Assembly (NCBI RefSeq): GCF_004010195.1
Contig: NC_057719.1
Location: forward strand, 8,517,604 to 8,581,603
Origin: Chiloscyllium plagiosum
Taxonomy: Eukaryota
Length of the DNA: 64,000 nucleotides
Direction of reading: 5' to 3'
Below are positions 12,901 through 39,983 of the stretch, in pieces. A program made the translations under genes and the position numbers. The notes under the pieces are model-generated. The model searched no databases and was not told the origin of the DNA. It was given only the letters and a program-made list of their open reading frames with translations. Numbering within the stretch: the stretch's first letter is position 1; each line of letters starts with the position of its first letter.

Positions 12901-13701
12901 ATAGAGCCACAGAAATGTACAGCACGGAAACAGACCCTTTGGTCCAACCTGCCCATGCCAACCAGATATACCAACCCAATCTAGTCCAACACCCACCCCA
13001 TATCCCTCCAAACCCTTCCTATTCATATACCCATCCAGATGCCTTTTAAATGTTGCAATTGTACTGGCCTCCACTCTTAGGTCATAAACTCATAGAGATG
13101 TACAGCACGGAAACAGACGCTTCGGTCCAACTCGTCCATGCTGACCAGATATCCTAACCTAATCTAGTCCCATTTGCCAGCACTTGGCCCATATCCCTCT
13201 AAACCCTTCCTATTCAGGCTTGATGGACTGAATTGCCTACTCTTTAAACATTTTAAAAAAATCTATCAATCTCAACCTCGAATATATTCAATGACTCAGC
13301 TCATCTCTGGGGTCGAGAATTCCAAAGATTAAAGATTCATTGGGAGTAGAAATGTCTCCTCATCCTCAACTTAAGTGGCTGGTTCTTTCTGAAACTATGT
13401 CTCCTCGGTTTGGGTTTGCCCATTTGGAGAAACACCCTCTGGGCACTTGTCTCATCAAGCCTCCTTAGTATGTGATATGATTCAATAAGCTCACCCCTCA
13501 TTCTTCAATATTCCAATGAGTTTAAGTTTGTTTATCCAGCCTGGGAATGCAATTCAACCTTTCCTCATGAGACAACCACTTCATCCCCGGAATCAGCCCA
13601 GTGAAACGGCTCTGAACTTCCAGAAATATAAGCATATCGCCCCTTAAATAAGGAGACTAATACAGTACACTGTAATCCAGGTGTGGTCTCACTAATGCCC
13701 T

Positions 13702-13903
13702 GTTGAGAGTGTGGTGCCAGAAAAGTACAGCAGGTCAGGCAGCATCCGATGAGCAGGAAAATCGACTCATCTCATTCCTGATGAAGGGCTCATGCCCGAA
13801 ACGTTGATTCTCCTGTTCCTCGGATACTGCCTGACTGGCTGTGCTTTTCCAGCACCACACTTTTCGACTCTGATCGACAGCATCTGCAGTGCTCACTTTC
13901 TCC
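13702..13903. mobile_element. Palindromic Penelope-derived element with intact plus-strand hammerhead core at ~13774-13809
   Basis: CUGAUGA (13778-13784)-A-GGGC(UCAU)GCCC-GAAAC-GUU-GAUU between inverted arms. Confidence 0.78.
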
Positions 13904-13944
13904 TCCATTTTGGCCCTTCTGGTCAATGTCAGTGTTTACATTCT

Positions 13945-14265
13945 CCAGACCACTAATCCAGAGACACTCAGGTAATATTCTGGGGACCCGGGTTCGAATC
14001 CCACTGCAACAAATAGGGGAGTTTAAATTCAATAAATATCAGGGATTAATAGTTGAATGATGACCATTACCAATTGTCAGAAAAACCCATCTGGTTCACT
14101 AATCCCTTTTAGGGAAGGAAATCTGCCATCATTACCTGGTCTGGCCTATGTGTGACTCCAGACCCACAGCAATGTGATTGATTCTCAACTGCCCTCTGGG
14201 CAATTAGGGATGGGCAATGAATGCTGGCCTAGCCAGTGATGCCCATATCCCGTGAGTGAGTTAAA
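13945..14265 (+). mobile_element. Second tRNA-derived SINE family (possibly SacSINE1/DeuSINE-like); other copies ~12440-12600-, 26010-26330-, 29550-29730+, 32905-33200+, 36345-36715+, 49660-50000-, 52445-52760+
   Basis: Shared text gggttcgaatccc...aaaacccatctggttcactaat...ggaaggaaatctgcc...gtgactccagacccacagcaatg. Family name is tentative. Confidence 0.7.
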
Positions 14266-16334: not shown

Positions 16335-16993
16335 TGGTCCTAGATAGACAGGATAGTGAAGAAGGTGTTTCGCATTCTTGCCTTTATTGGTCAGTGCATT
16401 GAGTATAGGAATTGGAAGGTCATGTTGAGGCTGTACAGGACATTGGCCAGGCTACTTTTCTGTGCAGTTCTGGTCTCCCTGCTATACGAAGGATGTTGTG
16501 AAATTTGAAAGGAATCAGAAAAAAATTGACAAGGATGTTGCCAAGGCTGGATGGTTGGAGCTATAGGAGAGGTTGAATAGGCTGGGGCTGTTTTCCCTGG
16601 AGCATTGCAGGCTGAGGGATGACCTTATAGAGGTTGATGAAATTATGAGGGGCGTGGATAGGGTGAATAGGCAAGGTCTTTCCTCAGGGTAGCAGAGTCC
16701 AAAACTAGAAGGGATAGGTTTAGGGTGAGAGGGGAAAGATTTAAAAGGGGCAATATTTTCACACAGTGGCTGGTGCATGTATGGAATGAGCTGCCAGAGG
16801 ATGTGGTGGAGGCTGTTACAATTACAACATTTAAAAGGCATCTGGATGGGTATGTGAATAGGAAGGGTTTACAGGGATATGGGCCAAATGCTGGCAAATG
16901 GGACTGGATTAATTTAGGATATCTGGTTGGTATGGACGAATTGGACCGAAGGGTCTGTTTCCGTGCTGTACATCTCTATGACTCTATGACTCT
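16335..16993 (+). mobile_element. CR1 3' fragment
   Basis: WNELPEDVVEA..FKRHLDGY motif and ctctatgactct tail. Confidence 0.9.
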
Positions 16994-19900
16994 TCGGTAG
17001 AGTGAGTCTCATTGGCCAGCTGCTTTAACACGGTAGCACGCGTGTGATGGTCTGAACAGCCTCATTTGTGATTCCACAATTCTGGATCTCTCCTGAGGCC
17101 CCAGCATAACACAGTCCATGCTCAAAATATATTAGACTGCGCACAGCTTCCGTCAGACCCGTTCAGGAGTACAGTGCTCAGTTTTGGATGGTGTGTCCTT
17201 GGTAACAACATTCCCGCACAGTAACACCAGAGTGATACCAGAGCTGCCAGATTTCTCACCACGTTGCCATTCTCTGGACAACTGAATGGTGTCAATAGGT
17301 CACGATGCAGAAAATGTTAAAAAGGATTAGGGTTAGGATTAGAATTAGATAGAATGGCCAGCTATAGAGAAACTATATTGTCTGGCAAGTTTGGGCTGGG
17401 GGATGCAGAGCAATATTGAGGAATAAGGGGGGGACCCAAGCTTTAGGTTAGAATTGAGTCCTTTAAGGCTGCAAGGGGGTAGAGCTTAAAATGTACTGGA
17501 AATCTTGCACATTCTCCCTCAACGGGTGCTTTCATTTTGAGATCGACAGGTAAGGATATTCAGGGTTACAGAACCAAGGTGAACTCCAGCCCAGTCATGA
17601 TCCAATTCGTAGAATTATAGAATCCAACATAAGATTTTGTGGTAATTTGATACCGTGCAATATCTCAGCTATGCAACCAGTAATTTAATGTGAAATATTG
17701 AAAGTCATCTGGAGAGCTGCTTTGTGAAGAGTCAGTGCAGCCTATGTTTTGGCAAGATAAAAGATAAATAGCAAAATTAGCTCGAATCGGTGAGAAATTT
17801 TGAGAGGATTGCACAGGGACCTGTGAAGGATTCATTTCTGAGCAAATTCTAATCAGCATTTTTCTCAATCACCATGGCATTTGATTGCTTGACATTAACC
17901 AAACGCATTCAAATTTACAGATGTATGAGACGAATATTAAAAGATTGACTCAGGGCTCATTGAAAAGACGGAGAATACAAGTGTGAAAGACTGGTGCCTG
18001 GGGATTAATAAATTATCACTGACACCACGATAGTGATCAGTTTCATCAAATAAGACAGCAGTAATCCTGAGTGCAGGAAGTCACGTATTAACAGAAGCAG
18101 AGGCAGAAGAGAAGGGCATTCAGTCCCATAAGCCTGCTCTGTCAGTCCATTGGGTAGCTCAGTGGTTAGCACTGCTGCCTCACAGTGCCAGGGACTCTGG
18201 TTTGATCCCACCCTTGGGTGACGGTTTGTTTGGAGTTTGCACTTTCTCTTCGTGTCTTATAGGCTTCCTCCCACAGGCCAAAGATATGCAGGTTGGCCAT
18301 GCTAAGTTGCCCTGTCATACTCTTCAGAGGGTCAGTATAGACCCAATGGTCCAAATGGCCTTCCTTCCAACTTGTCCATGCTCCCAGACTAAACTAGCCC
18401 CACTTGCCTGCATTTGGCCCATTTCCCTCTAAACCTTTCCTATTCATGTACAAGTTCCAAATATCTTTTAAATGCTGGAACTGTACCTGCGCCTCCTCTG
18501 TCAGTTCATTCCACATAAGAACCAACCTCTGTGTGAATTTCTGTAGTGCATCTTGTAGATAGTACGCACTGCTGCTACTGAGCGTCAGTGGTGGAGAGAG
18601 TGGATGTTTGTGGATGTGATGCCAATCAAGCGGGGCAGCTTTGTCCTGGATGGTGTCAAGCTTCTTGAGTGCTATTGGAGCTGCACCCACCCAGACAAGT
18701 GGGGAGTATTCCATGACATTCCTGACCTGTGCCTTGTAGATGGTGGGCAGGCTTTGTGGGGTCAGGTAAGTTATTCACTACAGAATTCCTAGCCTCTGAC
18801 CTGCTCTTGTAGCCTCTATATTTATGCATGGTCCAGTTGAGTTTCTGGTCAATGGTAACCCTTGAGGATGTTGATAATGGGGGATTCAGAGATGGTGAAG
18901 TGTCAAGGGGTGGTGATTAAATTATCTCTTATTGGCTGCTTAATGGTTTCAACTCGCTACCTCCCCAAACCTTCTCTGCTGTGGCTGAGACAGCTTAGAA
19001 ACTGGGGTGGCCTGTCTGATGGGTTTAAAGGTGGCAGGGTAGGTTGGGGTTTGGCTTCAATTGCCTTAATGGTAGGGGAAATTGAGTGCATGGATAGTGG
19101 GTATAGAAGTGGCTTCCACAAGCCTTGCTTTTGATCCTCTCTCACATTATTGTATACCCTCTCATTGTAGCTCAGGAATAGACCTTGACAGAAGGTCCTT
19201 AGGCCAGAGTTGTTACCATCTTCTGAATGGCTGGCACTTCCTGGGCACCTCAGAACAGAAATAAAAACCCTGTAAAACTTACAAATAACATACCCTAGTC
19301 TAACTTACTTAATACCACAGAATAGTGATCCAGTTCAACTCGGGCATTCATTTCCAAGTGTATGTGTCTTGTTTTCTCTCTGGGACAGTAGTTTTGAGTT
19401 GTCTGTTAGAGCAGGAAACTCACTAATGCTTTGTCTAGCAGCTTTTCAATGTATTGACGGGCATGGAGAGTCATCTCATTGGTAGGGCTTCTGTGTTTGG
19501 AACCACCTTACACACTTACTCACACTCTGAGGAAAATGATTGGGAAAATCAAGGCCAAATTATTGCATTTACTTCTTTCAGGTAGTGCATTTCACATCAC
19601 AACAACCCACCACGTTAAAAATAAAGATCATTTCTCCACATTTCCCCCCCCCCCCCCCCACCCCCTTTGCCAGTTATGATGATTGTCTGAAAAGCTGATG
19701 AAACAATTGGTGCTGTTGAGAGATGCAAGTGATTATTGATCCTGACTCATCTCCACAGGACACCATAGAGGCCCTTGACTAGAGGCATTTAGAGACAGCA
19801 CTAAATAGGGCCATGTGAAGGCTTGGGGACTGCAATTACTTTGCTATCTTGGAACCTGGACTCAAGGGAAAAACTGCCTGGTACTTTCTGCCCCTTATTG

Positions 19901-20009
19901 CTATCGCGTCGAGTTGTTGAACCAGAATCGTCAAGGGAAGCACCTTTAACAGAGCATGGGGAGAATAGCTGGCACCACACTGCTTCTTAGCCCTTTCATT
20001 AGAGGCTGT

Positions 20010-20230
20010 CTCATTAGGTAAAAGGTAAAGTTTCCCTAGTCCTATTCTCTTATCAGAGAGAGAGAGAGAGAGAGAGAGACGACTGGGTGGTGGTTTAACT
20101 TGAGGCTCATCATACCTCAGCTGAGAAAGAGAGTCCTTCATGGGAACCTCAGATGGTGTGGGAATTGAACCTCTGCTGTTGGCATCACTCTGCATTGCAA
20201 ACTAACTGTCAGGCAACTGAGCGAACCAAC
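20010..20230 (-). mobile_element. Third SINE-like family; other copies ~52310-52880+ (split by a SINE), 44760-44850-, 45500-45620, 60760-60880+
   Basis: Shared ggttcaattccc...tgaggtt..catgaaggactc...ctcaggttaaacca...tctctctct motif. Confidence 0.6.
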
Positions 20231-21341
20231 GTCCCCCCTGCCTATCAGTATAAGCTCACTGCACAAGTAGCATTTCTGAAGTATCTGTTCTACGATTGTA
20301 CAAATACGTGCTCTGAAACCAAATTTCAAAACACCACTGTGCTTTGAGTCAGCATCTGAAATGGTCCCTGCTGAACAGGAGAATCTAGGTGGTAGTAATG
20401 TAGAGGTTTAATCTTCATAGCAGAGCAGCAGGAGCGCTCTGAATAAAAGGCAGTAGACTGGGATTTCAGACACGCAAAACGAAACTGGAGTACATGGATG
20501 CAGATGTTATGCTGCAGTTATAAAACCCTGGTTGGACCCCACCTGGATTACTGAGTTGGGCACCACAGATTTGGGCATCACCACCTTAGGAAGATACATT
20601 GGTCGATGAAATACAACACGGGTTCACAACAATGATACCTGGACTTCAGGAGTTCAGTTACGAGCAACGATTACACAAACTAAGCCTGTTTTCTCTAAAC
20701 ATTTAAAGGGTGAAAGGGTGATCAGATGGAAAACTTCAAAATATTAAAATGTCAGATAAAGCTAAACTGTTTCCACTGGTTGAAGTATCTAGGACTAGGG
20801 GGAATGATCTGGGTATTAGGCTCAGACTGTTCAGGGGAGATGCTAGGATGCACATCCACACACAAAGGGTGGCAGAGGTCTGGAACTCTCTTCCACAAGT
20901 GGCAGTGGATGCTGGATCAGTTGTTGTTTTGAAATCTGAGATAGATATATTTTTGCTAAGGAAAAATACTAAGGCATATGGGCCAAAGGCAGGTATACTG
21001 AGTTAGGCCACAGGTTAGCCAGCAAGTTATTGAATGGTGGAACAGGCCTGAAGGGGCTGAATGACCTATTTTTGTTCCTATGTTCCCACACCACCTGAAA
21101 TTTTAATTTCAGATTTGATGCAGAATTACATGGAGTGTGCATTGTAGAAACAGGCCGCTTAGTCCAAATGATCCGTGCTGGTGTCCATGCTCTGTGTACG
21201 CCTCCTCCCATCTCATCCAGATCTAACCCGAACCATCTGATTCCTTATCTGATTTCCCTTTAATGCTGTTCACCTCAACAACACAGGTGAAGCTGTGGGT
21301 TCCATAGCCTAACCACTCCTACTGGGCTATGAGTGAAAATT

Positions 21342-21557
21342 GTTGAAACTTTATTGCTGGAACAGCACAGCAGGTCAGGCAGCATCCAGGGAACAGGAGA
21401 TTCGACGTTTCGGGCACAGGCCCTTCTTCAGGAATGAAGAAGGGCCTGTGCCCGAAACGTCGAATCTCCTGTTCCCTGGATGCTGCCTGACCTGCTGTGC
21501 TGTTCCAGCAATAAAGTTTCAACTTTGATCTCCAGCATCTGCAGACCTCACTTTCTC
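21342..21557. mobile_element. Palindromic Penelope-derived element, young copy, with hammerhead core
   Basis: Perfect 89-bp inverted repeat (21342-21430 / 21435-21523) with a 4-nt loop and a one-sided ~34-nt tail. Flanked by the 17-bp direct repeat ctatgagtgaaaattgt (21327-21343, 21558-21574). Confidence 0.85.
21400..21435 (-). ncRNA. Minimal type I hammerhead ribozyme motif
   Basis: AUUC-CUGAAGA-A-GGGC(CUGU)GCCC-GAAAC-GUC-GAAU: conserved core, 4-bp stem II, 4-bp stem I, palindromic ACGU stem III. Predicted cut between 21404 and 21403. Confidence 0.75.
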
Positions 21558-22294
21558 CTATGAGTGAAAATTGTAGATTTATAATGTGAGGAAAATTTGA
21601 TGTCTAATGCATCCAAGAATGCTACATCTAAATCCAAGTAATGGGTTCCTCAGTGGCTCCCATTGAATCTTCCAAGAGCCAATATGATTACATGGGATAA
21701 ATAGCTCAGCTGAAGGACAACTGTTACATGACAAAAAGGCCGTTTGACCCTTGCTGTCTCTCTGACTCTCTGAGCGTTTTAACTTTGTGCCAATCTCATG
21801 CCTTTTCCAGCCCATCCTTGACACACTTGCCGAAGGACAAACGCCATGCGTGCTGTTTCCATTGAAATTATTATCACCACATCTCCAGGCAGTGCTTTGC
21901 CGATCTGAATTGTGTGAAATCATTGTTTCTCATTTGCTACTTCTGCAAAATATTGTGCTCTCATGTGCAAGAACAGAGTACGTAACTATCCTGCACAGAC
22001 GTGACATAATCTTGAAAAGCTATCTCTGATCTCCTTTGAGCCACCTTCTCCTCAAGGAGAATGGTCCTAATCTTTTCAATCTATCCTCATACTTTAAGGT
22101 TTTCATCCCTGGAAGCAGTTTCATGAACCTTGTCCATGTGCTCTCCAATGTATTCACATCTTTCTATAGCGTTGTGCCCTTAACAGGATACAACAACCCA
22201 GCTGAGGTCGGACAAATGTCCTATCTAAGTTCAGCATCACCACCTTACATTTGCACTTTATGCCTCTATTAATGAAGATACTTGGGTAACAATT

Positions 22295-23110
22295 GATTCT
22301 GGTCTCCCTCCTATAGAAAAGATGATATGAAATTTGAAAGGGCTCAGAAAAGATTTACAAGGATGTTGCCAGGGTTGGAGGGTTTGAGCTATAGGGAGAG
22401 GCTGAATAGGCTGGGGCTGTTTTCCCTGGAGCGTCGGAGGTTGAAGGGGTCACCTTAAAGAAGTTTATAAAATCATGAGGGGCATGGATAGGGTAAATAC
22501 ACAAAGTCTTTTCCACAGAGTAGGGGATTCCAACACAAGTGTGGACAGGTTTAAGGCGAGGGGAAAGATTTGAAAGAGACCTGAGGGGCAATGGTTTCAT
22601 GCAGCAGATAATGCATTGATAGAATGAGCTTCCAGATAAAGTAGTGGACGCTGGTACAATTACAACATTTAATTGGGCATCACGATGGCTCAGTGATTAG
22701 CATTGCAGGCTCACAGCACCAGAGACACGGGTTAAATCCCAGCCTCGGGTGACTGCCCTTGGGGCGTTTGCACATTCTCCTCGTGTCTGTGTGGGTTTCC
22801 TCCCACAGTCCAAAGACATGCAGGTTAGGTGGATTGGCCATGCTAAATTGCCCCATACTGTGCAAAGACATACAGGCTAGCTGGATTAGCCATGGGCATT
22901 AGAGGGGTGTGATGTTCTTTGAAGGGCCAGTGTGGACTTGATTGGCCGAATTCACACCACAGGTATTCCAAGAGGCATCTGGATGGGTATATGAATAGGA
23001 AGAGTTTAGAGGGATATGGGCCAAGTGCTGGCAAATGGGACTAATTTAATTTGGGATATCTGGTCAGCATGGATGAATTGGACCGAAGGGTCTATTTCTG
23101 GACTGCACAC
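22295..23110 (+). mobile_element. CR1 3' fragment interrupted by an HE1 SINE (~22680-22950)
   Basis: CR1 text stops at acaacattta and resumes at agaggcatctggatggg after the SINE. Confidence 0.82.
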
Positions 23111-24581
23111 CTCTGCCTGTCCTAACACCTTTAATGACTTATGTTCACATACTCCCAGATGTCTCTGTTCCTGTATGCCCTATATTTGACACTGTCTGTT
23201 CATGTTCTTTGTACAAAAATGTACTACTTCACACTTATACACAGTGAACATCATCCTCGTCTGAATCTGCACTCAACCTCCCCAAACCTCCTGGTCAATA
23301 GAATTGTACCATTCAGACAACATTGCCGTAACAAGCAATCTTTGAGATGGTATATTATCGTTGCTGAATGTGGAACGAATCCTTCTCTACACCAGGTAAG
23401 CAGGGGGAGAAAGGTGAGGCAGATTAATCTCTCATGATCAATAACACTTCGAAACCAGTCACATCATCGTGCTGTGCATTTAGTAAGAAATGATGAACAA
23501 CAAATCACTTAGCCATCCCTTCTCTTTGTCAAGGTAGTTCCAGTTTAATTACTGAAGCAGTTATTTACGACCCCAAATGCAGTGGACAAACAGAAAGTTA
23601 TTACTTTGGGAAGGCTTCTTATATACATTGTAAATCAGGGCATTATTAATAAGCTAGTGATCTTCCAAACTCAATGGCCTGTTCAAAGGAAATGGATTAA
23701 GTCTCTCTCCACATTCAGACGTTGTTTAGGAGTGCTGGAGATTTACGACATCCCATTTGTGTAGAAGCCAATGCAGAGAAAACACAGCAAAGCAAAAGGC
23801 CTTAATTGCCACACTTTTCTTTCTGGAAGGTTCTGTGAAGTTGTTAAAAAAAGCTGTCATTGGAGCGACATGGAGTTGGCCAGTTTCAAAGAAATGTTTT
23901 CCAACCTGAAGCTTAGGACGGAGGGTGCAGGTGATTAACATGATGGCTAGCCTCCACGCTCTAGACTCTCAGCTGGCTCATTGCTACAATCTCTTCCTAT
24001 ACTAAGCCGCGCAGCATTCGGAAGTCAGAGTCATCCAACCAGACCATAATCCCAAACTAAAATTAGTCCCACCTGCCTGCTCCTGGCCCATGTCCCTCCA
24101 AAGCTTTTTCACACAGAGGGTGGTACGGGTATGGAAGAGAAAGTGGTACAATTGCAACATTTAAGAGGCATTTGGATGGGTATATGAATAGGAAGGGTTT
24201 AGAGGGATATGGCAGGTGGGACTAGATTGGGTTGGGATATCTGGTCGGCATGGACGGGTTGGACCGAAGGGGCTGTTTCCATGCTGTACATCTCTATGAC
24301 TCGATGACTCTATTCATGTAATTATCCAAATGTTTTTTAAATGTGCCCATATCCATCACTTCCTCAGGAAGTTCATTCCAAAAGCCAACCGCCCTCTTTA
24401 TAAAAAATCAAACCCTCAAGGCTTTTTTCAAATCTCTCTCCTGTCACGGTAAATATGTGCCGCCCCACCCCAGTCTTGAAACCCCAATCCTAGGGAAAAG
24501 CCACTAATCGCATCTACGCACTCCCCCACCTCTCCCCCATGATTTTATAAACCTCTATAAGGTCACCTCTCATCGTCCAGT

Positions 24582-24766
24582 GACAAAGTGAGGACTCCAG
24601 GTGCTGGAGATCAGAGTCAAAACGTGTGCCGCTGGAAAAGCACAACGAGTCAGGTAGCATCCGAGGAACAGGAGAACTCATGAAGGGCTTATGCCCGAAA
24701 CGTCGATTCTCCTGTTCCTCAGATGCTGCCTGAACTGCTGTGCTTTTCCAGCGCCACACTTTTCGA
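24582..24766. mobile_element. Palindromic Penelope-derived element nested in a minus-strand CR1; hammerhead core mutated (CUCAUGA)
   Basis: Shared arm sequence gctggaaaagcac...ggcagcatccgagg and its inverse. Confidence 0.75.
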
Positions 24767-25407
24767 TGCTCAACCTCCTACGCTCCAGTGAAAAAAGTCC
24801 CAGCCTTTCTTTGGAACTCAAACCTTCCATACCCGGCAACATCCTGGTAAATCTCTTCCAAACCCCCTCCTGCTGAATAGTATCCTTCCTGTGTCGAAAC
24901 ACAAAGGCGAGGGATGGAGAAGAAAAAGAGAAGGCACAATTTCAAACTATTTTGAATGCGAACTGGAAACACAGGAATTCATAACCCGGCTGAATCGTAA
25001 CTTAGGGATTCACAGGCAATTGCCGGCCTTTACTGACACTCACCATGTCTTTGCATTGGAGGGGTTACATTTTGTCGGAAGTGAAAGATGAGGGCCAATT
25101 TTGTTTCCCATTTTATTCATGCATGGCATGTGTGTATCACTGGAAAAGCCAGCATTTGTCACTTGCCCTTAATTGTCCTTGAACTGGGTGGCATGCCAGG
25201 TTGCCTCAGAGGGTGGTTGGAATTCAAAAGGCATGTTGTCAGCATGGAGTTGGGCAGGCCTTCTCTCGTCTGCCTGTGGTGTGGCTGCATCCTTTCTTGT
25301 ATGCGGTTTGGCTGGCATCCTGGTTGGCATTTGTCCCTTGACCGGTGTGTCAAGGATGGGTTGGCTGGTTCTTCATCCACTGCTGTTTGCAGGAGACTAT
25401 TCTCCAC

Positions 25408-25840
25408 AGGGAGAGGCTGAATAGGCTGAGGCTGTTTACCCTGCAGCGTCGGAGGCTGAAGGGTGACCTTACGGGGGTTTATAAAATTATGAAGGGCATG
25501 GATAGGATAAATAGCCAAGATCCTTTTTCCAGGATAGGGAAGTCCAAAACTAGAGGGCATAGGTTTAAGGTGAGAGGGGAAAGATTGAAAGGGGACTTAA
25601 CGGGAAACCTTTTCACGCAGAAGGTGGAGCATGTATGGAATGAGCTGCCAGAGGAAGTGGTGGATGTGAGTAAAATTACAACATTGAAAAGGCATTTGGA
25701 TGGGTACATGAATAGGAAGGGTTTAGAGGGATATGGGCCAAGTGCTGGCAAATGGGAACTAGATTAATTTAAGATATCTGGTTGGATGAGTTGGGCTGAA
25801 GGGTCTGTTTCCATGCTGTACATCGCTATGACTCTATGTC
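25408..25840 (+). mobile_element. CR1 3' fragment
   Basis: RRLKGDL..GHRFKVRGER..WNELPEEVV and tail. Confidence 0.88.
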
Positions 25841-26469
25841 TCTTTGGTAGAGTGAGGCTAATTGGCCAGATGCTTAAACAAGGTAGTACACGTGTGATGG
25901 TCTGAATAGCCTCATCTGAGTTAGTGGATCAACCATGATCATGTTGAATAATGGTATGGGCTTGATGCGCCAAATGACCTACTGCCGCTCCTATTTTCGA
26001 TTTTTCTATGTAAGCCAGACAGAGTAACATTAGCAGATTTCCTTTCCTTTAAAGGGGATTAGGAACCAGATGGGTTTTTACAACAACTTATAATAGTTGC
26101 ATGGTCACCAGCATGGAACGTTACACTGCAGAAGGAGGCCATTTGGCCCATCATGCCTGGACTGACTCTTCAAATGAGCACTTAGTGCCAGTCTCCTGAT
26201 TTTCCTTCTGCTAAGTCCCTCACTGAGATTAGTTTTCAATTCAACTTGACCCTGTGTTCACACAGCACCATCCTGGGTCTTTGGATGACCAGTCCAGTGC
26301 CATTGTGCCCAATCATCTCCCCACATCGATCGTTGACTTCAGCTGACAACAGAAGCTATCATTCATTTTGAATGATCCTGGTACACCAGCCATGTTAACA
26401 GCAGCAGGCCATTCAGCCTCTTGATCCTGTACCTCTATTTAATTAGGTTACAGCTGACTTGTACTTTTA

Positions 26470-27062
26470 TTCATGTTGCGGCTGTAGAGGACATTGGTTA
26501 GGCCACTGTTGGAATATTGCGTGCAATTCTGGTCTCCTTCCTATCGGAAAGACGTTGTGAAACTTGAAAGGGTTCAGAAAAGATTTACAAGGTTGTTGCC
26601 AGTGTTGGAGGATCTGAGCTATAGGGAAAGGGTGAATAGGCTGTGGTTGTTTTCCCTGGAGTATTGGAGGCTGAGGGGTGACCTTATAGAGGTCAATCAA
26701 ATCATGAGCAGCACAGATAGGGTAAATTAACAAGGTCTTTTCCCTGGGGTCAGGGAGTCCAGAACTAGAGGGCATAGGTTTAGAGTGAGGGGGAAAGATA
26801 TAAAAGAGATCTACGGGGCAACGTTTTCATGCAGAGGGTGGTACGGGTATGAAATGAGCTACCAGAGGATGTGGTGGAGGCTGGTACAATTGCAAAATTT
26901 AAGAGGCATTTGGATATGTATATGAATAGGAAGGGTTTGGAGGGATATGGGCCGGGTGCTGGCAGGTGGGACTAGATTGGGTTGGGATATCTGGTCAGCA
27001 TGGATAGGTTGGGCCGAAGGGTCTGTTTCCATGCTGTACATCACTATGACTCTATGACTCTA
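26470..27062 (+). mobile_element. CR1 3' fragment
   Basis: [28 protein letters not shown] and 3' tail. Confidence 0.9.
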
Positions 27063-27653
27063 TTTTATTGGTTCATATCCTTTCAAGGAATCTTGGAGCA
27101 CAGAAGGTGACTCTTTGGTCCATCATTCTGTGCCCATTCTTTGGAAGAGCTATGGGATCAGACTCATTGGCCTGCCTCTCTCTCTCTCTCTCAATCACCG
27201 CAGACATTATCCCCTCAATAATTCATCTCATCCTGTTTCAGGAACTACATTCAAATCTGCTCCACCACCTTCTCAGGCAATGCATTCCGAACCACAACAA
27301 CTCGCTGCTTTAAGAATATTTCTCCCTGTCTCCCTCAATAGATCTTTCACCAATTAGCTTAAATCTATCTCTTCTGGTTAATGACCCTCCTTCCAGGAGA
27401 AATAGTGTCTCCTTATTCTCTCCAGCGAGTGATTACAGTCATTGCTCTGTACCTGTGAGGGTTCTGCTCCTGAGAATCTCTGTGAATGATGAAGTACATA
27501 TCAGTGTGGTGATTGTTTAAAAATAGGTTAAAAATCTTCGATATGCAACTTTTCCTGCAGACGCTGAATTTTTTTTGGTTGCTATTTATTTGTTGTCATG
27601 GATAGGCAAATTTGCGTGATTTCATAAATGCTGAGGATTTACTAAATCTACTA

Positions 27654-27798
27654 GGAGAAAGTGAGGACTGCAGATGCTGGAGACCAGAGCTGAAATATGT
27701 GTTGCTGGAAAAGCGCAGCAGGTCAGGCAGCATCCAAGGAGCAGCACTCTGAAAGCTCGTGCTTCCTATCAAACCTGTTGGACTATAACCTGGTGTTG
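27654..27798. mobile_element. Chimeric fragment joining arms of the two Penelope-derived families
   Basis: The left part matches the 3952/24582 family. The right part (ggagcagcactctgaaagct...gttggactataacctggtg) matches the 54040 family. Confidence 0.65.
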
Positions 27799-29864
27799 TG
27801 TGATTTTTAACTTTGTCCGCTATTCAATGAGATTGTGGCCCCAACTCCATATACCAGCTTTTGGCTCATTTCCCTTAATACCTTTGCTTAACAAAAATTA
27901 ATCAGTCTCAGATTTAAAATTGAAAACTGATCCGGTGTCCACTGGCATTTGTAGAGGAGAGTTCCAAACCTCTCCCACCCTTTGTGTGCGGAAGTGCTTC
28001 CTAACATCTCTCCTGAACGGTCTGGCCTGAATTCTCAGACCATGCCCCCTAATTCAAGAATCCCCAACTGATTGAAATAGTTTGAGACAAAAAAAACTGC
28101 AGATGCAGATGAATTGAAATAATTTGTCTTTATCTACACTGTCTCTTCCTGTTAATATCTGTGAGAAAATTTCACTCCTGTATTGCTCATTCTGAATGTT
28201 AACATGATTTCCTGTCCTGCATATCTTTGTGACTGTGAGAGGAAACTGGGGCACCCGAAGGAAACCCACGCAGACACGGGGAGTATGCGCAACACCAAAC
28301 AGACAGTCCCCCAAGGCTGGAATCGAACCCAGCTTCCTGGTCCTGTGAGACAGCAGTATTAACTCTGCATTACAAACCAGCTATCCAGCCAAATGAGCTA
28401 ACTAGCTCTGGCATAATCCCAGTGAATCTGCACTGGACCCCTTCGATGGTCAAACTATTGGTCCTATGATTCAGCCCTGAGAACGGAAGCCTATGTGTCT
28501 GACCGAAACTCCATACAAGTGAAGACCATCTCATTTCACTACCCTTCGCGATGGAGCTTCTAAGACAACACAAAGCCATACTCAAATAAAACTCCGCACA
28601 AAATTCTCTCCATATTGTAAAAGATTCCCCAAATCACATTTATTCTCAATGTGTGGTCAACACTGCTGCTCTGACAGCTGACTGGGTTCCTAGGTTACGT
28701 TTATAAACTCATAGGGATTAGGAACAGATGTAGGTCATTGAATCTGACTTGCCATTTGATAGGATCATGGTGGATCTGATTGAAGCCTTAACTCCATTGT
28801 CTTGCCTGTATACCCCTCCCCATAGTCCTTACAATCCCTTCCCTTTTGACCAAAATTCGACTTAACTCAGCCTTTTTCTATCCAATCTCTGCTGTTCACC
28901 ATGAAAGAGAATCCCAAAGTCTAACAACGCTTTGGGAGAGGAAATTTCTCCTTCTTTTCAGTGGTGACTACTTGGGGTTGATAGAAGGGGTGATGGTGCT
29001 GATGATTAGCATCAGAATGGGGTCATAGGGATGCCCTCAGGCCAGCAGACCCCAACCTCAAACTGAGGAGGAGGAGAGTGCTCAGGTCAGGAAGCAGTCG
29101 GCTGTCCAGATTGGAATGGGGCAAAACAAAACCACAGCAGATGGTGCAACATAAACTCAATGAATTCAACTTTGAATATAAGGGTCATCTCAGTAATTAG
29201 AATTAGAATCTCTACAGAGTAGAAACAGGCTCTTCGGCCCAACAAGTCCACACTGACCCTCTGAAGTGTAACCCACCCAGATCCATTCCCCTCTTACTTG
29301 ACATTTCCCTCTGACTAATGCAGCCAACTACATAATCCCTGAACACTATGGGCAATTTAGCATGGCCAATTCACCTGACCTGCACATCTTTGGACTGTGG
29401 GAGAAAACCAGAGCACCTGGAGGAAACCCATGCAGACACAGGGAGAATGTGCAAACTCCACACAGACAGTCACTCAAGGCTGGAATCAAACCTGGGTCCT
29501 TGACACTGTGAGGCAGCAGTGCTAACCATTGAGCCACCATGTCACCCTATACTGTTGTTGTAAAGACCCATCTGATGCCTTTTGGAAATCTGTTGCCTTT
29601 ACCTGATCACGCCCACACATGACTGCAGACCCAGTACAACTCTTGATTTTCCACTGAAATAGCTGAGGAAGGTAACCAGGTGAAAGAGATGGACAATGAA
29701 TGCAGTCTTTGTCAGTGACACTCAGACCCTACGAAAGCCTGTTTAAAAATTATGACTACTTTAATCTTTATTGCCTACTGCCTCTTCTCATTTAATGCAA
29801 TGAGGGAATTTCAATTTACAACTTATGTTATCTGTGAGTTATATAAACTATATTAAAGTCAGAA

Positions 29865-31580
29865 AATCATAGAAATGTTCAGCATGGAAACAGACCCTTC
29901 GGTCCAACTCGTCCAGGCTGACCAGAAATCCCAACCCAATTATCCCACCTGCCAGCACCCGGCCCATATCCCTCCAAACCCTTCCTATTCATATATCCAT
30001 CCAAATGCCTCTTCAATGTTGCAACTGTACCAGCCTCTACCACTTTCTCTGGCAGCCTAGTCCATACACGTATCACCCTCTGCGTGAAAAAGTTGCCCCT
30101 TAGGTCTCTTTTATATCTTTCCCTGCTCACCCTAAACCTATGCTCTCTAGTTCTGGACTCCCCCCACCCCAGGGAAAAGACTTTATCTATTTATCTTATC
30201 CATGTCCCTCATGACTTTATAAATCTCTATATGCTCACCCCTCAGCCTCCGACTCTCGAGGGAAAACAGCACCAGTCTATTCAGCCTCTTCCTATAACTC
30301 AAATCCTCCAACCATGGCAACATCCTTGTAAATTGTTTCTGAACCCTTTCAAGTTTCACAACATCTTTCCGATAGGAAGGAGACCAGAATTGTACGCAAT
30401 ATTCCAACACTGGCCAAACCAATGCCCTGTACAGCAGCAACATGACCTCCCAACCCCTGTACTCAATACTCTGCCCAATAAAGGAAAGCATACTAAACGC
30501 CTTCTTCACTATCCTATCTACCTGCGACTCCACTTTCAAGGAGCTATGAACCTGCACTCCAAGGTCTCTTTGGTCAACAACACTCCCTAGGACCTTACCA
30601 TTAAGTCTTGCTAAGTCCTGCTAAGATTTGCTTTCCCATAATGCTGCACTTCGCATTTATCTAAATTAAACTCCATCTGCCACTTCTCAGCCCATTGGCC
30701 CATGAGATCAAGATCCTGTTGTAATCTGAGGCCACTTGCTTCACTGTCCACTACACCTCCAATTTTGGTGTCATCTGCAAACTTACTCACTGTACCTCTT
30801 ATGCTCACATCCAAATCATTTATATAAATGATGAAAAGTAATGGACTCAACACCGATCCTTGTGGCACTCCACTGGTCAGAGGCCTCCAGTCTGAAAAAC
30901 AACCTTCACCAACACCCTCAGACTTCTACCTTTGAGCCAGTTCTGTGTCCAAATGGCTAGTTCTCCCTGTATCCCGTGAGATCTAACCTTGCTAATCAGT
31001 CTCCCAAGGGGAACCTTGCCAAACACCTTACTGAAGTCCACATAGATCACATCTACTGCTCTGCCCTCATCAATCCTCTTTGTTACATCTTCAAAAAACT
31101 CCATCAAGTTTGTGAGACATGATTTCCCATGCACAAAGCCATGTTGACTATCCCTAATCAGGCCTTGCCTTTCCAAATATATACACATCATGTCCCTCAG
31201 GATTCCCTCCAACAACTTGCCCACCACCGATGTCAGGCTCACTGGTCTATAGTTCTCTGGCTTGTCTTTACTGCCCTTCTTAACAGTGGCACCACGTTAG
31301 CCAACCTTCAGTTTTCCAGCACCTCACCTGTGACTATCGATGATACAAATATCTCAGCAAGAGGCCCAGCAATCACTTCTCTAGCTTCCCACAGGGTTCT
31401 AGGGTACATCTCATCAGGTCCTGGGGATTTATCTACTTTTATGCATTTCAAGACTTCCAGCACTTCCTCCTCTGTAATATGGACATTTTTCAAGATGTCA
31501 CTATCTATTTCCCTACAGTCTATATCTTCCTTGTCCTTTACCACAGTAAATACTGATGCAAAATACTCGTTTAGTATCTC
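29865..31580 (-). mobile_element. 5'-truncated CR1/HER1-type LINE with frameshifted RT
   Basis: ORF pieces [47 protein letters not shown]; 3' tail at ~29865. Confidence 0.95.
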
Positions 31581-34500
31581 TTTTCTTTCATTAAAATCAT
31601 TGAATTAAATTGTGAATGATTGAGATGTTTTCACATCCCTAGGGAATTCCAGTTGTCACCTCATTACAGTCAGAGTTGTTGCCCAATAATCCAATGCAAT
31701 TTCTCTGAACTCAAGCCAACTTCCAAGCTACATTATAAGGCTATCTCCATTGCAATGCAATCTGCCAACAATCTGTTGTCAGCAACATCATTGAGAAGTC
31801 CATATAGAAAGCATCCACTGATACTACTGATTAATGATATCCTCAAAAAATCCAACAGGATGCTGGATGTTCTGTTGAATAATATTACGCTGGTGCTCCC
31901 TGATCAGTTCACACTTTCTCATGTACTCAATCTCATCATTTCAACTGACTGATTTGATTTCAACTGAAAAATATATGAACCTTGAATTAATCAAGCTGAA
32001 AGGTAAAAATGTCTATTTATCCAATCAATCGAAAAAAGATTGAAAATTCAGTAAGTTTTGCATCCAGGCACACTTAAAATTCAAGTGCCAATCAGAGAAA
32101 TCTGTTCAGTATTAAAGGACTGAATATCAAATGAATATAAATGCAGTTAATATTAACGCAGGGACATGTTTTTGACATCAAATTTCTCTTTCAGTGGCAA
32201 CAAGTGAATTAAAAGGCAGTTAAATAGTCTGAGACATGTTAAGAGGTGGGATGCATTTTGTCATTGAGGGTTTGGACTGAACGATCCACTGGGGGCTTCA
32301 TGTAGATATGATGAATAGGACAGCTCGGTTATTTTTGAGTTATCTAAAACAGAAGCAAACTGAACGTTCCACAGTGGAGATAAAGTGGCAGGGAAAATGT
32401 GTGGAATAACCTGTAAACTGGTGGACATTGTGCAACTCATCATGAATTTTTGATCTGAGGGAGTTTGGGCCCATAACCAGGTGGCAGCCATCTTTGTCAG
32501 GATGATAGCAGAAGACTTGAAGGATTGAATGGACTGTGCCTGGAAATGGAATAGAGGTTGGAATTGGATAGGGGGAATACAGAATTCCAAAGACTTATAG
32601 ACACTCTGAGAGAAGAAATTCCTCCCCATCTTTCTCTTAAATATGAGACCGTTTATCTTGCCAGAGTGAATGCTGAGATGATGTTAACCACGTCTAGATT
32701 TTGGATTTTCGCACAAGGGGAATGTCATCTCAGCATTCACTCTGGCAAGGTGCCTTAGAAATTTATTGACGTAAAAAATTCCAAGTTCCAATGTGTATGA
32801 GCCCAATCTGCTCAACCTTTCCTCATTCAACAACCCTTTCATTTCAGGAATCGGCCTTATTTTCAGGAGTCACTTGTATGAAGAGCCCTTATTATATTGG
32901 AAGGAAAGGAGATAGTGGGAATGTCACTGAGCTACAATGCAGAACTTCAGGCTGATGTTCTGGGGTTGTGTGTTTGAATCCCACAGACAGCAGGTGGTGA
33001 AATTTGAATTTTAAAAAAATGCCAGCCTAATGTTGACCATCTATCCACTGATGGACATTATGAAAGAAATAACTCCATTTCATTCACTAATGTCATTCAG
33101 GACAGGAAATCTGCCTTCCGTTCCTGATCTGGCTCACATCCTGACTGCTAACTGCTATTAATTATTGGAATTAATGATGGCCTAGCCAGCAATACTCACA
33201 AACCTCCACTGTCTACTGAAACAATGGCGCAAAATCTCCATTACAACACATTTACTAATCTCCAAAGATTAGCAAAACTCCACTGTCTTCATCCATTTCC
33301 ATCATTCAGCTGATTCTCTTGAAAACATTGATGGGAGCTGGATAGAGCAGGGCTAGATTTCGACTTAACAACGGGTTTGAACTGGGGATGGCAGGATTGA
33401 TGAATGGGGAGAGACTGAACTAGTTGGTTTAGAAGAATGAGGGGAAGTAAGGGCAGATCTGTGGCTCAGTGGTTAGCACTGCTGCCTTACAGCGCCAGGG
33501 ACCCGGGTTTGATTCCACCCTCTGTGTGGAGGTTACATATTTTCCGTGTCTGCGTGGGTTTACCCTGGGTTCTCCGGTTTCCTCCCACAGTCCAAAGATG
33601 TGCATATTAGGTGGATTGGCTGTGCTAAATTGCCCCATAGTGTCCAGGGGCTAATAGGTTAGGTGGAGTAGCCATGGTTAACACCGGGTTGTGGGGATAG
33701 GGTGGGGGACTGGGTCTGGTTGGGATGCTTTCCGGAGGGTTGGTGCAGACTCAATGGCCCTGTAGGGATTCAAAGATCTCATAGAAATCTCTAAAATTCT
33801 GATTTGACCAAATAGAGTAATTGCAGGAAATATGTTCCATATTACCAGGGATTCTAGAGCCAGGGGTCACAGTCTAAGACTATGGAATGGGCCAGTTAGT
33901 ACTGAGCTGAGGAGAAACTCGTCACCCACAGAGTGGTGAGCCTGTGGAATTCTCTGCCACAGAAAGAGGTCGAGAGACCAAAGCGTTGAGGAAGGAGTTT
34001 GAGATAGCTCCTTGGGTTAAAGGGATCAAAGGTAATGGGGAGAAAGCAGAAACAGGGCACTGAGTTGGATGACCAGCCATGGTCATATTCAATGGTAGAC
34101 CAAGCTTGAAGGGCTGAATGGCCTACTCCTGTTCCCATTTTCTATGCTCCTATGTTTAATGAAGGTACAAAGGAGCTTATTTACGTTATTTGTTTTCCGG
34201 CATTTTCGGAAGGGAGAACTGACCTAATTACTGACTGAAAAACTGTTCACAATTGCAAGAAGTGGTCATCAAGTTTGGAAAAGGGGAGAATGAATCATAA
34301 TTAAAAAAGGAAGTAGAAGGAATATAAGTGAGAACATCACACAAGAACAGCACAGTGCAGCAGAGCTCTCGTATAAATGCGATGGTGTATGAATCAGCCA
34401 TTTGCTGTCTTGCTGTCAGATGGCTGAGACAATGAGCTGCTGGCAGCTTTGTTTCCCCCAGCAGGGAAGGGGTGTGATTAGTTATAAATTTAACAGGTAA

Positions 34501-36860
34501 AGATGAGGGACATCAATCCTCTTTTCAAGTGGAATACCATGTAGCCTTGCACTTAGTTCTTCAATACAAGGTAATATACGCATCCTAACTGTTTGTTGAC
34601 ATACGTACCAACTAATAAGCAACATTTAGTGGCCCAATTCATTCTCGTCTGACTGTAAAACCACCACATGACAGAGTGGCTGGAGGACATACTTCAGTCA
34701 GCACAGAATGTACACTGCAGAAACAGCCCATTCAGCCTGCATATATCCTCCATACAAGTCTCCTGCCAGTTAATGTCATGTCACTTGAATTATTAAGTTT
34801 AAGGATATACAGGCTGGAGAGAACTCATTGATTGGGAATCTTGAGCAAACATAGGAAGAGACTTTAGGGATGCTCACCACTAGTGAGCATGGAGACACAC
34901 ACCTGTAATGCTGCATTCTGTCATTAAATCTCATATTAGTGCTCTCTTACTTTAACAAATGGTTTCAGAATGGATTCATGCTTCCACTCCTTTGCCTCTC
35001 ATTCCATCAGACTGGACATGAGATGATATGCAATCGATTTATGTCCTTGACTTTTAAAAATTTCTTGCATGCTTAATATAGGGTTTGAATTATAAAGAGA
35101 GGCTGGATAGGTTGTGAACTTTTTCATTAGAGTGTCGGAGGTTGACCTTATACAGGTTTATAAAATAATGAGGGGTATAGGTATTGGCAGGTATCCTTTT
35201 CCTACAATGGGGAATTTTAGGATTGGGGGCATATTTTTAAGGTGAGAGGAGATAGGTTTTAAAAAGATATGAAAGGAATTTTTTTTACACAGGGAGTGGT
35301 TTATCTGTGGAATGAACTTCCAACGGAAGTGGTGGATGTGGGCACAGTTACATTTAAAAGACTTTTGGATACGTACATGAATAGGAAAGGTTTGGAGGGA
35401 TATGGGCCAAATGCAGGCAGGTGGGGCTAGTTTAGTTTGGGATTATGGCCAGCATGGACTGGTTGGACCAAAGGGTCTGTTTCCAAGCTATATGACTCTC
35501 TGATTCTATGACTAGAACTGAGGATCATAAATACTAGAGCCTCAAATAAATCATAGCAGGGAATTCAAGAGAATGTCATATTCTGAGAGAATGGTTAGAA
35601 TGTGGAACCTATTACACATGATACTGATTGATGTATCTAGCACTCAAGAAGAATCTAACTAAACATACGGGAGAGGAAAGGAATAGGAGAACATATTGAT
35701 CCAGAGAAATGAAGAAGGAGGTTCATGTAGAGCATAAAACCAGCATTTATATGATAGGCAGAATGGCCTGTCTCTGTACTCAAAATGCTAAGTAACAATG
35801 GAGTGCATGATTGGATTTCTTTAGCCCACAGTACATGGCTGCCCCTAGAGAAAAGGACTGTTAGTCAATAATTACTATCTGTCTTCCATTCATATTTTCC
35901 ATTCAAGGTCATGGTGAACCCTAAATCTTCAATCAATTCCACTATCATGTTGAGGAGGTACTCACTCTTGATCTTTCCCTATGGGGAAGATAAGGTCCGA
36001 GTCTCAATGGTCAATGCTGAGGGCTCTTGGGTCAGGACCAGTCCGTTACAAAAAAAAATCACACGGAACTTTCAGTCAGATGTAGGCCACTCAGGTCAGT
36101 CCAATGAAAATGGGCTAGGTTAGGTCAAGTTCCCTTTACACTCACCTCAGTCCCAACATCTATGTCTATTTCCCACATTACAACAATGACCAGGCATCAA
36201 AGATGCTCCATTGATTTTAAAACATCCTCAGAAGGGCACTGCAGAAGTGGATGTTTTTCTCTCCTTCTATATTGTATGTCCCACAACCAATCAACACAAC
36301 CCTGCAACTCAGCGCATTAGCACGTTTTCCTGCTTCCTCTCAAGAGAGGAGGCAATGATTGAGTGGTATTGTTAATAGGCTCATAATCCAGAGACCGTGT
36401 AATGTTCTGGAGATGTGGGTTCAAATCCCACCATGGCAGATAGTGGAATTTGAATTCAATCATTCAAACCATGATAATTCAATAAAACAAAAACTGAAAC
36501 TGAATGTTTAATTACGATGAGGTGACCACTGGCAGTTATCATGAAGTTCCCTGGTTCACCAATGTCCTTCAGGGAAGGAAATCTGCTATGCTTACCTGGT
36601 CTGGCCTACATGTGACTCCAGACCCATAGCAACAGTCTCTGGTTAGTTAGAGGTGGCCAATAAATACTGGTCTGGCTGGTGATGCCCATCGACCATGAGC
36701 GAATGAAGTAAAAAAAAGCCCAGTTTTACGAGTTTCAAATCAAATCAATGGTAAAAGTATCACTCTCAATCTCCCACTCCCCACTGCAACACTTAACAAG
36801 TGATAAGTGTACTTGGCAAGACCTACATCCCCAGCACACTCTGTGTTAAAACAGCATGAA

Positions 36861-38729
36861 CATGCATTAATGTTATTATACTTACACAACCCTTCCCTGA
36901 GGCATGTCCCCGCCTGGTTGAGTGCTTTGCAATTAAAAAAAATATGGGAGAAATATGTCTTTTTATGAAAACTTCAAGATGAGGCTTCAGGCCAATCTAT
37001 GTCCAACAACCTGCTCCGAATACTCTGCTCACATTCTGACAAATCCCACGTCAGCAGCTGAGGCGATCCACAAAATTCGAAAACAACCATGGTCTAACTA
37101 AAATAATCCAAAACACTCCAAAGAAACTGTCAAATAATTCTAAAGGAATCCTTTAAAAGTTTCAGGATTTAGATCTGCATGTTTGCTAAAGGCAAATCGA
37201 TTTTTGCCTGAGCCGTACCCTGTTTGTTTGCCAATATTCATTGGAATACATCCATTAGATTTAGAGAAATCTACAGATAGACTAACAAATGGGAGTGAAA
37301 TTATTCTGTCTGCCACTCAAGAGCACTGCAGTGTGAAGTCATAGCGCGGAAACAAAAATATAATTTCATGCAAATGCATCTACAAGTTCCCAGTATTTCC
37401 AACATCTAGTAGCTTGGGTATAGTATGGGCAGCTTCCTACCACTTCTCAATTTCCATTACCATACATGTGCCAATTTATCATGGTTCAGCACCTGGTAAC
37501 ATTGACATTTAAAGCGCTTTCCAATTGGTAAGAGTTGGAAAAGTAATCACAAAACAAGTGCAGTCACTTTCCAAAACAATACACTTTCTTTTGCCTGTTG
37601 CTCTTTTGGGAATTTGCTTTACCCTGGAAGAAAGAATTGGGAAAGGGAACAAGGTAGGATTGCAGGGTCTGGGGCAAGAAGATGGGAAAGTTTTAACAAA
37701 CCTCTACAAAAACAGAGAACAGAATCACATGACGTCACAACATCAAGAACAATAACAAACCACGGACACAAACCAAGGATATCACTGGTTCCCCAACCGG
37801 GAATTTAAAAATAAACACAGGAGCAGGTGGATAGGCAGCAGCTCCCGGGCCATGACCACACAGACACCAAAACAAAATAAACAGTTTCTGAGCAAACACA
37901 GCAGAGCGTATGATTGACCCCCAACAACTCGCTATGTGTCACAGCAATGGCCCCCATCACAGTCCATGCACTGACTGCGGAGTCATGAAAAGGGTGGGTT
38001 TTCTGTTTTGGCAAAGGAACTACTGCTGCAATGTGCCAATGATGAATTTTTTTTCACGAGATCAAACATGAATTCGCAATTGTTTGGCAGGTAACAATGC
38101 TTCCTGACAATAAAATTCTTTTTATGCCATCTGCATTCTCTTTAACAGAAAGTAAGTTGTTACTCAGCACCAATAAAGATATTTGGAGGGGATAGAGATA
38201 AACGTAAAGGCTAGACAGAGCAGTGACAGTGAGAAAGAAGTAGAGGATTGGGAAGGCAAGGAGAGGAGGGGCAGAGTGATTGTGTTTCAACCTTCTACAT
38301 AATTCAATTTTTAGTCTTTCATACACAACTCTCTTTGGCAGCCCAGGGCAGTAGTCACCACCCATCCTGCCTAGTTCGATGGCAAGAAAGGATTTTGTTG
38401 CCTCTAAACATAAAAAAATGTACTTTTTTTGCATTAAAAAAAATTCAATTGAAAGAAAAAACGGAATTCTTAAAAATGGAAAAGAAATTGCCTCCAAAAA
38501 TTCAAAATTCTTGTTTTGTTTTACAAAATATATATGAAGATATGATATATATATGTGTCATGTGCATATATATATATACATATACAAATCTCGTCATACC
38601 ACCAAAATTACATGCAGTGCATGATGAAGTGTGAGAGCAAATAATACCAGCTATAACTGCTGCTTAACGACAACATAAACTGAACTATAAACCACACATG
38701 CATTAACAGTGAAAACGACACTGCATGCA
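36861..38729 (-). promoter_or_regulatory. Cluster of six sense-strand UGCAUG (RBFOX) motifs
   Basis: CATGCA on + at 36861, 37367, 37965, 38611, 38697 and 38724, downstream of the Cys-loop exon in repeat-free DNA. Function is inferred. Confidence 0.5.
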
Positions 38730-39895
38730 GTTGTTCAAGTTTGCTGATGCTGGGGTTAGAAATGAGGGAGTGAATTTCTGTGTAAACATATGATTTGATG
38801 GTGAGGGACTGCTGACATCTGTCTTTTTCTTAAAAAAAATATTTTTCCAAAAAAAAATTCCCCAAAAATTAAATTAAAAAAAATGCGGAAAACTTAGGGA
38901 ATCTTAAGTCTTAGGAGTTTGATCATCCTGTACCAAATATGTTTACTTTTTTTAAAAAAAAAGCAAATGTGAGCCCAGTAAAATATTTTTGCTATCAAAA
39001 TCTTTTGCTGAATATCTCTTTATATATCTGCGCTATTGTTTATATATCAATATATGTACAATCATACATATGTGTACATATGTACATATTTAAATATGTA
39101 GGTAAGCCTGAAAAAATTATGCTAGGTTAAAAAAAAAACATACACAGAAATTCTTTGATATCTGTTCTCTATTACAATGGCCTAACCCATGGCAAGCCTT
39201 AAGAGAGATAGAGAGAAACGAAAAAAAAAAGGACAAGCCTAATATTTGCAATAAATCAGCTCAATATCACTAGTTCGTTTGGCAGTGACAGTCAAAATGC
39301 TTCCGCCAGTGAACAGAAAAAGTAACTGGAGTGGGGAAGCAACAGAGAAAGGGGAGGAGGTTATCTCAAGGAGGGCAATCAATCATGTGACTGACGGCAG
39401 GCATTTTGGGGCATCAGTCAGATTAACATGGCCCCGGTCTATTACTAATTTCGGCTATCTGTAGCTGGGCTCAGCTCCGGCAGCGGCAAAATTAGTGCCA
39501 AAACGATACCATGTTAACTGCACTAGAGGTCCCATGGATCTGTGTGTTATCACCAAAGAACAGGAGAACAATTAGCAGGCTTAACGTGAAATCTTTAATT
39601 ATCCCCAGCATAAACATTTCATTCATCATGATGAGACTCCCGAGAGGAATCTGGGCAGTAATTTCAATTTGTCAAATGTCTTATTCCATTTTAAATTCCC
39701 ACTTTTTGGGTTCCATCATGTGGAAGTGGTCATCATTTAGATCTCAAGTTCCTCCTCAACTTCCTTCCCCACACTGGTCCATGGGACCTGATGCCTTGGG
39801 CTTGGATTCTGCTATCCAATTCTATCAGTAATTACTGTTCAACTTCTATCGGTTAATTATCTTTGCGAAAGAAGGAGCAAGCAAAAAGGACTGAC

Positions 39896-39904
39896 CTAAC
39901 CCAC
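39896..39904 (-). CDS. 9-nt alternative donor extension adding GGL
   Basis: TCAG|GTGGGTTAG|gtcagt: a second GT donor 9 nt downstream keeps phase 1. Analogous to GGL in NRXN1 and GRS in NRXN3. Confidence 0.8.
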
Positions 39905-39983
39905 CTGAGCTGGGCTCGCACTCATCGAGGTCCTCATCGTCACTTGCACACTCAGCTGAGGAGACAATAAGGTCATCGGTGAC
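39905..39983 (-). CDS. NRXN3: Neurexin cysteine-loop / heparan-sulfate attachment exon: [26 protein letters not shown](G)
   Basis: Acceptor ccccttttctcattgcag|GTC (phase 0), 79 nt, donor G|gtgggt. The peptide matches the neurexin motif DDxxVxSAECxSDDEDxxxCEPS. Confidence 0.93.

Follow-up and report, generated by a model that had tools for sequence, protein, structure and literature searches.

The window analysed here, a 64,000-nucleotide stretch of the genome of the shark Chiloscyllium plagiosum, raises the question of what kind of neurexin gene it carries. The initial annotation described a tail of NRXN3 type joined to a Cys-loop exon (exon 23) resembling that of NRXN1 and NRXN2, and offered two explanations: (i) shark NRXN3 retaining ancestral states or (ii) a fourth paralog left by whole-genome duplication. 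Phylogeny, divergence distances, chromosome identity and outgroups all favour the former. In the window lie the three final exons of this species' NRXN3 ortholog, and a tblastn search with 10 stored neurexins found no further neurexin exons in it. With a probability of about 95%, we consider the locus to be an ordinary NRXN3 ortholog, already annotated, with ancestral features.

The features identified in the window are collected in the table below. Positions 39896-39983 of the minus strand translate to 29 residues including GGL. A pyrimidine-rich acceptor AG stands directly before 39983, and the two GT donors, 9 nt apart, give an exon of 79 or 88 nt. Stored neurexin proteins of sharks are identical to the exon (100%) across 28-30 residues, with E values of 2e-10 to 1e-11, and both kinds of isoform, with and without GGL, are present among the shark RefSeq models. 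Judged from its sequence, the stretch 39896-39983 is a genuine exon, and the translation, the splice-site reading and the full match to shark proteins show that the initial annotation had described it exactly, GGL donor extension and coordinates included. It contains the stalk serine adjoining the loop and the two cysteines that flank an acidic stretch.

Features of the NRXN3 locus in the window
Feature	Position	Strand	Basis
NRXN3 exon 23 (Cys-loop exon), short form, 79 nt	39905..39983	-	100% to RefSeq shark nrxn3a proteins
9-nt tandem-donor extension, GGL, used with the second donor	39896..39904	-	donors AG/GTGGGT (after 39905) and AG/GTCAGT (after 39896)
Intron to the GPI acceptor, ~37.7 kb, LINE/SINE-like fragments abundant	2190..39895	-	repeat classes by eye from translations
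Second exon 24 acceptor, farther upstream; leads to the short tail DGHVYAHLFVYPPSLPYS and a stop	2185..2241	-	AG before 2241
Exon 24, GPI-signal form: AKSSNAGR..., hydrophobic C-terminus, stop	2080..2189	-	likeness to skate GPI-type isoform
Terminal exon 25: transmembrane helix and cytoplasmic tail to EYYV	115..1037	-	100% to C. plagiosum neurexin 3a
Exon 25 acceptors	1037 (long), 737 (middle), 416 (short)	-	each used by RefSeq isoforms

Two further observations concern the borders of exon 23. In shark and ray isoforms the three residues directly before it are variable, being either there or absent; no micro-exon for these residues was found in the window, and the variation is therefore probably due to an alternative donor of exon 22, beyond the window. 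Three proteins of Mustelus asterias (P0128, P0161 and P0189) have a four-residue extension, GGHV, alongside the GGL form, which suggests a third donor or a model artefact.

At the sequence level, the AS5 cassette of NRXN3, with the GPI exon 24 and several exon-25 acceptors, is present. The GPI form of exon 24 shares 66.7% identity with P0132, a GPI-type isoform of skate (E 6e-11), and its hydropathy in the C-terminal 15-residue window is 2.08, versus 1.95 in skate and 2.17 in platyfish. The alternative acceptor opens a frame other than that of the GPI form, which yields the 18-residue tail DGHVYAHLFVYPPSLPYS and a stop. With one change, the same tail ends the stingray RefSeq isoform P0498 and is thus kept between shark and ray. 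GPI-type tails occur in 6 stored proteins, every one of NRXN3 type; among the retrieved proteins GPI-type isoforms came only from two skates and platyfish, and no GPI-tail isoform was found among the retrieved Chiloscyllium proteins. The splice choices given here for sharks are those predicted by RefSeq models. We also considered the tail of the Petromyzon proteins P0510 and P0520 as a homolog of the GPI exon and rejected it (shuffle p 0.17, 0.019 and 0.67 with three queries): it is a non-transmembrane tail after the Cys-loop, with a slight resemblance to how exon 24 begins and an end that is not hydrophobic.

The intron between exons 23 and 24 contains an assembly gap (393 N, 9354-9746). Broken reverse-transcriptase-like frames and repeated SINE-like stretches were seen at ~29880-31600 of the minus strand and in many shorter stretches. 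Judged by eye, the intron repeats are of CR1/LINE type, typical of shark introns.

Within the top-scoring 120 of 8000 proteins, the terminal exon agrees fully (100%) with the C. plagiosum 'neurexin 3a' of RefSeq; other sharks and rays reach 90-96% identity, bony-vertebrate NRXN3 78-80%. A query with the Cys-loop region (43 residues) brought up proteins named NRXN3 and no others (82/88 candidates), and since the word filter of this search misses NRXN1/2, it provides no evidence on the nearest paralog. An ML tree of 19 rows (LG+G4), rooted with hagfish and lamprey, used only the part of the protein that precedes the Cys-loop exon. The NRXN1, NRXN2 and NRXN3 clades (N1, N2 and N3) are each supported at 100/100, and the four elasmobranch rows are sister to the five bony NRXN3 rows, so that the shark gene groups with bony NRXN3 even with the trait region left out. 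A mixture-model tree of 31 rows with invertebrate outgroups likewise unites shark and bony NRXN3 at 100 SH-aLRT. It also joins NRXN1 with NRXN3 (89), but with a long-branch warning, and without the invertebrates the 19-row tree does not settle the order of N1, N2 and N3; we therefore make no claim on which two neurexins are the 2R sisters. AU tests reject the grouping of shark N3 with N1 and N2 (p 1e-6) and that of shark N3 with N1 (p 2e-5).

The position of a sister group alone cannot tell an ortholog from a 2R sister, and for this reason divergence depths were compared. If cartilaginous fish had lost the true NRXN3 and kept instead a fourth 2R ohnolog, its sister (hidden paralogy), the shark gene would also stand as sister to all bony NRXN3. 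Such retention has precedents, as chondrichthyans are reported to keep ohnologs lost in bony fish in 19 cases (Marletaz et al. 2023, PMC10115646, in excerpts), and exon 23 does keep characters that are absent from bony NRXN3. The depths argue otherwise. As three genes remain from two doublings, one pair of them should be 2R sisters, and with paralog distances of 0.51-0.54 in all five pairs measured, the 2R depth would be ~0.5. The tree distances between shark and bony N3 are 0.265-0.281, about half as large as those in any paralog pair measured and on a par with the ortholog depth of NRXN1 (0.259-0.299 between shark and amniote N1). The divergence between shark and bony NRXN3 is thus of speciation depth.

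Comparisons along the protein can be read beside these distances. Over 748 gap-free columns, the shark gene is 82-86% identical to bony N3, 75-77% to N1 and 68-75% to N2, and the identity between catshark N1 and amniote N1 is 86%. The shark gene is nearer to bony N3 in 12/12 windows along the protein. At 16 gap-free diagnostic sites it has 8 states of N3 type, 4 ancestral and 4 of its own, after 39 gap columns, produced by different SS5 isoforms, were dropped (with them the counts are 10/40/5). The 4 ancestral sites are spread along the protein, with 0/4 in exon 23. A stricter count upstream of exon 23 gives 4/2/1 of 7.

The chromosomal context was assessed with the little skate as a proxy, whose nrxn3a lies on a 70,835,176-bp sequence, the same size as Leri_9C. 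The marker genes of Leri_9C belong to human 14q, where SNW1 lies near NRXN3, and a megabase-size NRXN3 would be expected after Snw1. In the tables of PMC10115646, Leri_9C carries Alkbh1, Sptlc2 and Snw1 (13.4-13.5 Mb) and Flrt2, and likewise Zfyve1, Dact1, Max, Vash1, Dync1h1 and Bcl11b; the same paper, in excerpts, assigns LER9 to CLG-A1, 1alpha, and reports extensive conservation between skate and bamboo shark chromosomes. At chromosome level, and for skate only, the ortholog therefore shares a chromosome with the usual NRXN3 neighbours Snw1, Alkbh1, Sptlc2 and Flrt2; Cep128, Dio2 and Adck1 have 0 rows in the skate gene table as accessible. After Snw1, the tabulated Leri_9C models amount to one per 500-kb bin in three bins (14.0-15.5 Mb). 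This sparse 1.5-Mb stretch suits a very large gene, the place of NRXN3 there being taken from gene order, and it lies where the large NRXN3 would be expected. The skate copy is thus on an alpha chromosome and not on the beta segment, where a 2R sister would belong, and the context points to the ordinary alpha copy of NRXN3. Synteny, which the initial annotation had named as one means of telling the two explanations apart, points to NRXN3, as seen at chromosome level in skate.

Among the matches listed, each of 15 elasmobranch species has one NRXN3-like locus, on chromosome-scale contigs of 70-406 Mb, and in none of them was a second such locus found; the C. punctatum gene appears additionally on older scaffolds. 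No chimaera neurexin was found among these matches. Separate NRXN1 and NRXN2 genes were found in catshark and skate, respectively. The Amblyraja radiata protein P0371 (XP_032871115.1, on a 15.6-Mb contig) is 'neurexin-1-beta-like' by name, but falls within NRXN2 in the tree (100/100), and it is probably a misnamed skate NRXN2. In a literature search by title and abstract that covered few subscription journals, we found no work devoted to a fourth neurexin in vertebrates or to the evolution of neurexins in sharks. Were there a true fourth neurexin, it would amount to a lost synaptic organiser, and a retained 2R sister would make the switch between GPI and transmembrane forms older than the second genome duplication, as the initial annotation had considered. 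With a divergence of half the paralog depth and the skate copy on a 1alpha chromosome, we regard such a paralog as very improbable, and the evidence dates the switch only to the jawed-vertebrate ancestor.

If the locus is an ordinary NRXN3, the likeness of its exon 23 to NRXN1/2 calls for explanation. The one-residue difference in length from NRXN3, noticed in the initial annotation, is real: among the matches listed, 107/110 bony-vertebrate NRXN3 proteins have one residue fewer ahead of the first Cys (of the others, 1 has an insertion and 2 are without the motif), whereas the long form occurs in 119/119 NRXN1, NRXN2 and cyclostome matches. It also occurs in 15/15 elasmobranch species, letter-identical in 14, and a GGL isoform is predicted in 12/15 of them, again among the matches listed. 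As the long form is shared by N1, N2, hagfish and lamprey, it is ancestral, and the deletion is a novelty of bony-vertebrate NRXN3. By its distribution among these proteins, the shortening of the Cys-loop exon by one residue unites bony-vertebrate NRXN3 as a shared derived character.

The BLOSUM scores of exon 23 are 102-114 with N1/N2, 98-117 with hagfish and lamprey, and 83-98 with bony NRXN3. The exon is thus nearer to NRXN1/2 by raw score, as the initial annotation had it, but the characters behind this likeness are also found in lamprey and hagfish, and they are therefore primitive and not borrowed. This bears on the further reading that, in the shark lineage, gene conversion or exon exchange replaced the Cys-loop exon of a true NRXN3 with that of NRXN1 or NRXN2. 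That reading could draw on the score of 114 with shark NRXN1 and on the EPSS-GGL common to shark NRXN1 and shark exon 23. However, a lamprey paralog scores as high (117), which marks the likeness to NRXN1 as primitive, and at the sole position of the exon that separates all bony NRXN3 from all NRXN1, NRXN2 and cyclostome-A rows and at which the shark agrees with one side, the shark has the NRXN3-type serine and is without the proline common to N1, N2 and cyclostomes. One lamprey paralog, of the second cyclostome type, has the NRXN3-type serine too. GGL or GGI persists in ray-finned-fish NRXN3, and the catshark paralogs lie, among the matches listed, on different chromosomes (NRXN3 on one of 289 Mb, NRXN1 on one of 314 Mb). 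Derived NRXN1/2 characters confined to exon 23, on which the mosaic of the initial annotation depended, are not borne out, as the characters are shared with hagfish and lamprey, and we give exchange of the exon even less credence than a fourth ohnolog. Besides these comparisons, we observed that P0230 and P0365-P0367 (lampreys) and P0246 (hagfish) form a second, diverged type of cyclostome neurexin.

The tail of an ordinary shark NRXN3 has ancestral traits as well. The initial annotation had called the terminal and GPI exons NRXN3-like, and this 'NRXN3-type tail' is partly ancestral too: the long stalk insertion is found in teleost and skate NRXN2, and a lamprey has a segment resembling the middle one. 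The extension after the loop also varies within NRXN3, being GGL in sharks and in the platyfish NRXN3-type protein P0370, GGI in sturgeon and paddlefish, and GKS in birds. In mammalian NRXN3 the extension is GRS, which did not occur among the stored proteins. Directly after the loop, GGL is present in 57/98 NRXN1-type and 0/18 NRXN2-type matches among those listed.

Based on these observations, we conclude that shark exon 23 has kept the ancestral vertebrate neurexin length together with the ancestral GGL tandem-donor extension, and that bony-vertebrate NRXN3 lost one residue before the loop after the split from sharks, while its extension drifted (GGL, GGI, GKS). To judge from the peptides, and from DNA in the shark, the three extension residues are probably set by the way in which the two donor signals overlap, as the first would fix Gly and the second would need a codon ending in A, which would place GGL, GGI and GKS only a few bases apart. 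As all three fit one overlapping-donor template, few base changes could explain them.

In excerpts of Montoliu-Gaya et al. 2021 (PMC8024894), heparan sulfate is attached to the serine directly before the Cys-loop, and the loop together with the adjacent residues is bound by CA10; the loop cysteines are required by FAM19A, according to excerpts of PMC7480106. By analogy with mouse and human, shark exon 23 would supply both the heparan-sulfate serine and the Cys-loop bound by CA10 and FAM19A. Excerpts of PMC9275415 describe how inclusion of exon 24 yields GPI-anchored NRXN3 and its skipping joins exon 23 to the acceptors 25a/b/c. Splice site 5 of the shark gene would, on the same analogy, pick one of the two donors and then exon 24 or exon 25. 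The choice of exon 24 would lead to a stop and a GPI-anchored protein, and that of exon 25, with its three acceptors, to transmembrane proteins whose stalks are long, middle or short. We infer that the shark cassette may work as it does in mammals.

The gene itself is already known as an annotated ordinary ortholog. RefSeq neurexin 3a of C. plagiosum (XP_043552965.1 and isoforms) matches the terminal and Cys-loop exons at 100%, and its isoforms with and without GGL, as well as all three terminal acceptors, are already annotated. The closest described system is the AS5 of mouse Nrxn3, with exons 23-24-25a/b/c (Hauser et al. 2022, PMC9275415, in excerpts), which has the same order as the shark and shares with it a Cys-loop exon, a GPI exon with a stop and hydrophobic end, and several last-exon acceptors. 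In comparison with mouse Nrxn3, however, the shark has one residue more in exon 23 and GGL as its extension, and GPI anchoring in the shark is predicted. Shark exon 24 resembles the exon-24 alignment in Fig. S1I of the same paper, which, in the portion seen, comprises human, macaque, mouse, garter snake and zebrafish; the word 'shark' has 0 occurrences in the searched supplements of PMC9275415. The stalk of NRXN1 with the SS5 GGL insert, as excerpted from PMC8024894, has the same exon length and GGL as shark NRXN3. Unlike NRXN3, the NRXN1 matches listed lack both a GPI tail and a long insertion in the stalk behind the loop, and the rest of the shark protein is closer to NRXN3 (82-86%) than to NRXN1 (75-77%).

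What the locus adds is limited to a jawed-vertebrate minimum age of the GPI switch and a bony-vertebrate-specific deletion beside the Cys-loop. The NRXN3 splice-site-5 cassette, GPI exon included, is found in sharks and rays, and the published alignment, in its accessible part, ends at zebrafish. As the two donors, the GPI exon and the three acceptors occur in sharks and rays, the cassette is at least as old as the last common ancestor of jawed vertebrates. Since the deletion adjoins the residues bound by CA10 and the heparan-sulfate serine, shark NRXN3 is a natural comparator for any effect of the deletion on ligand binding.
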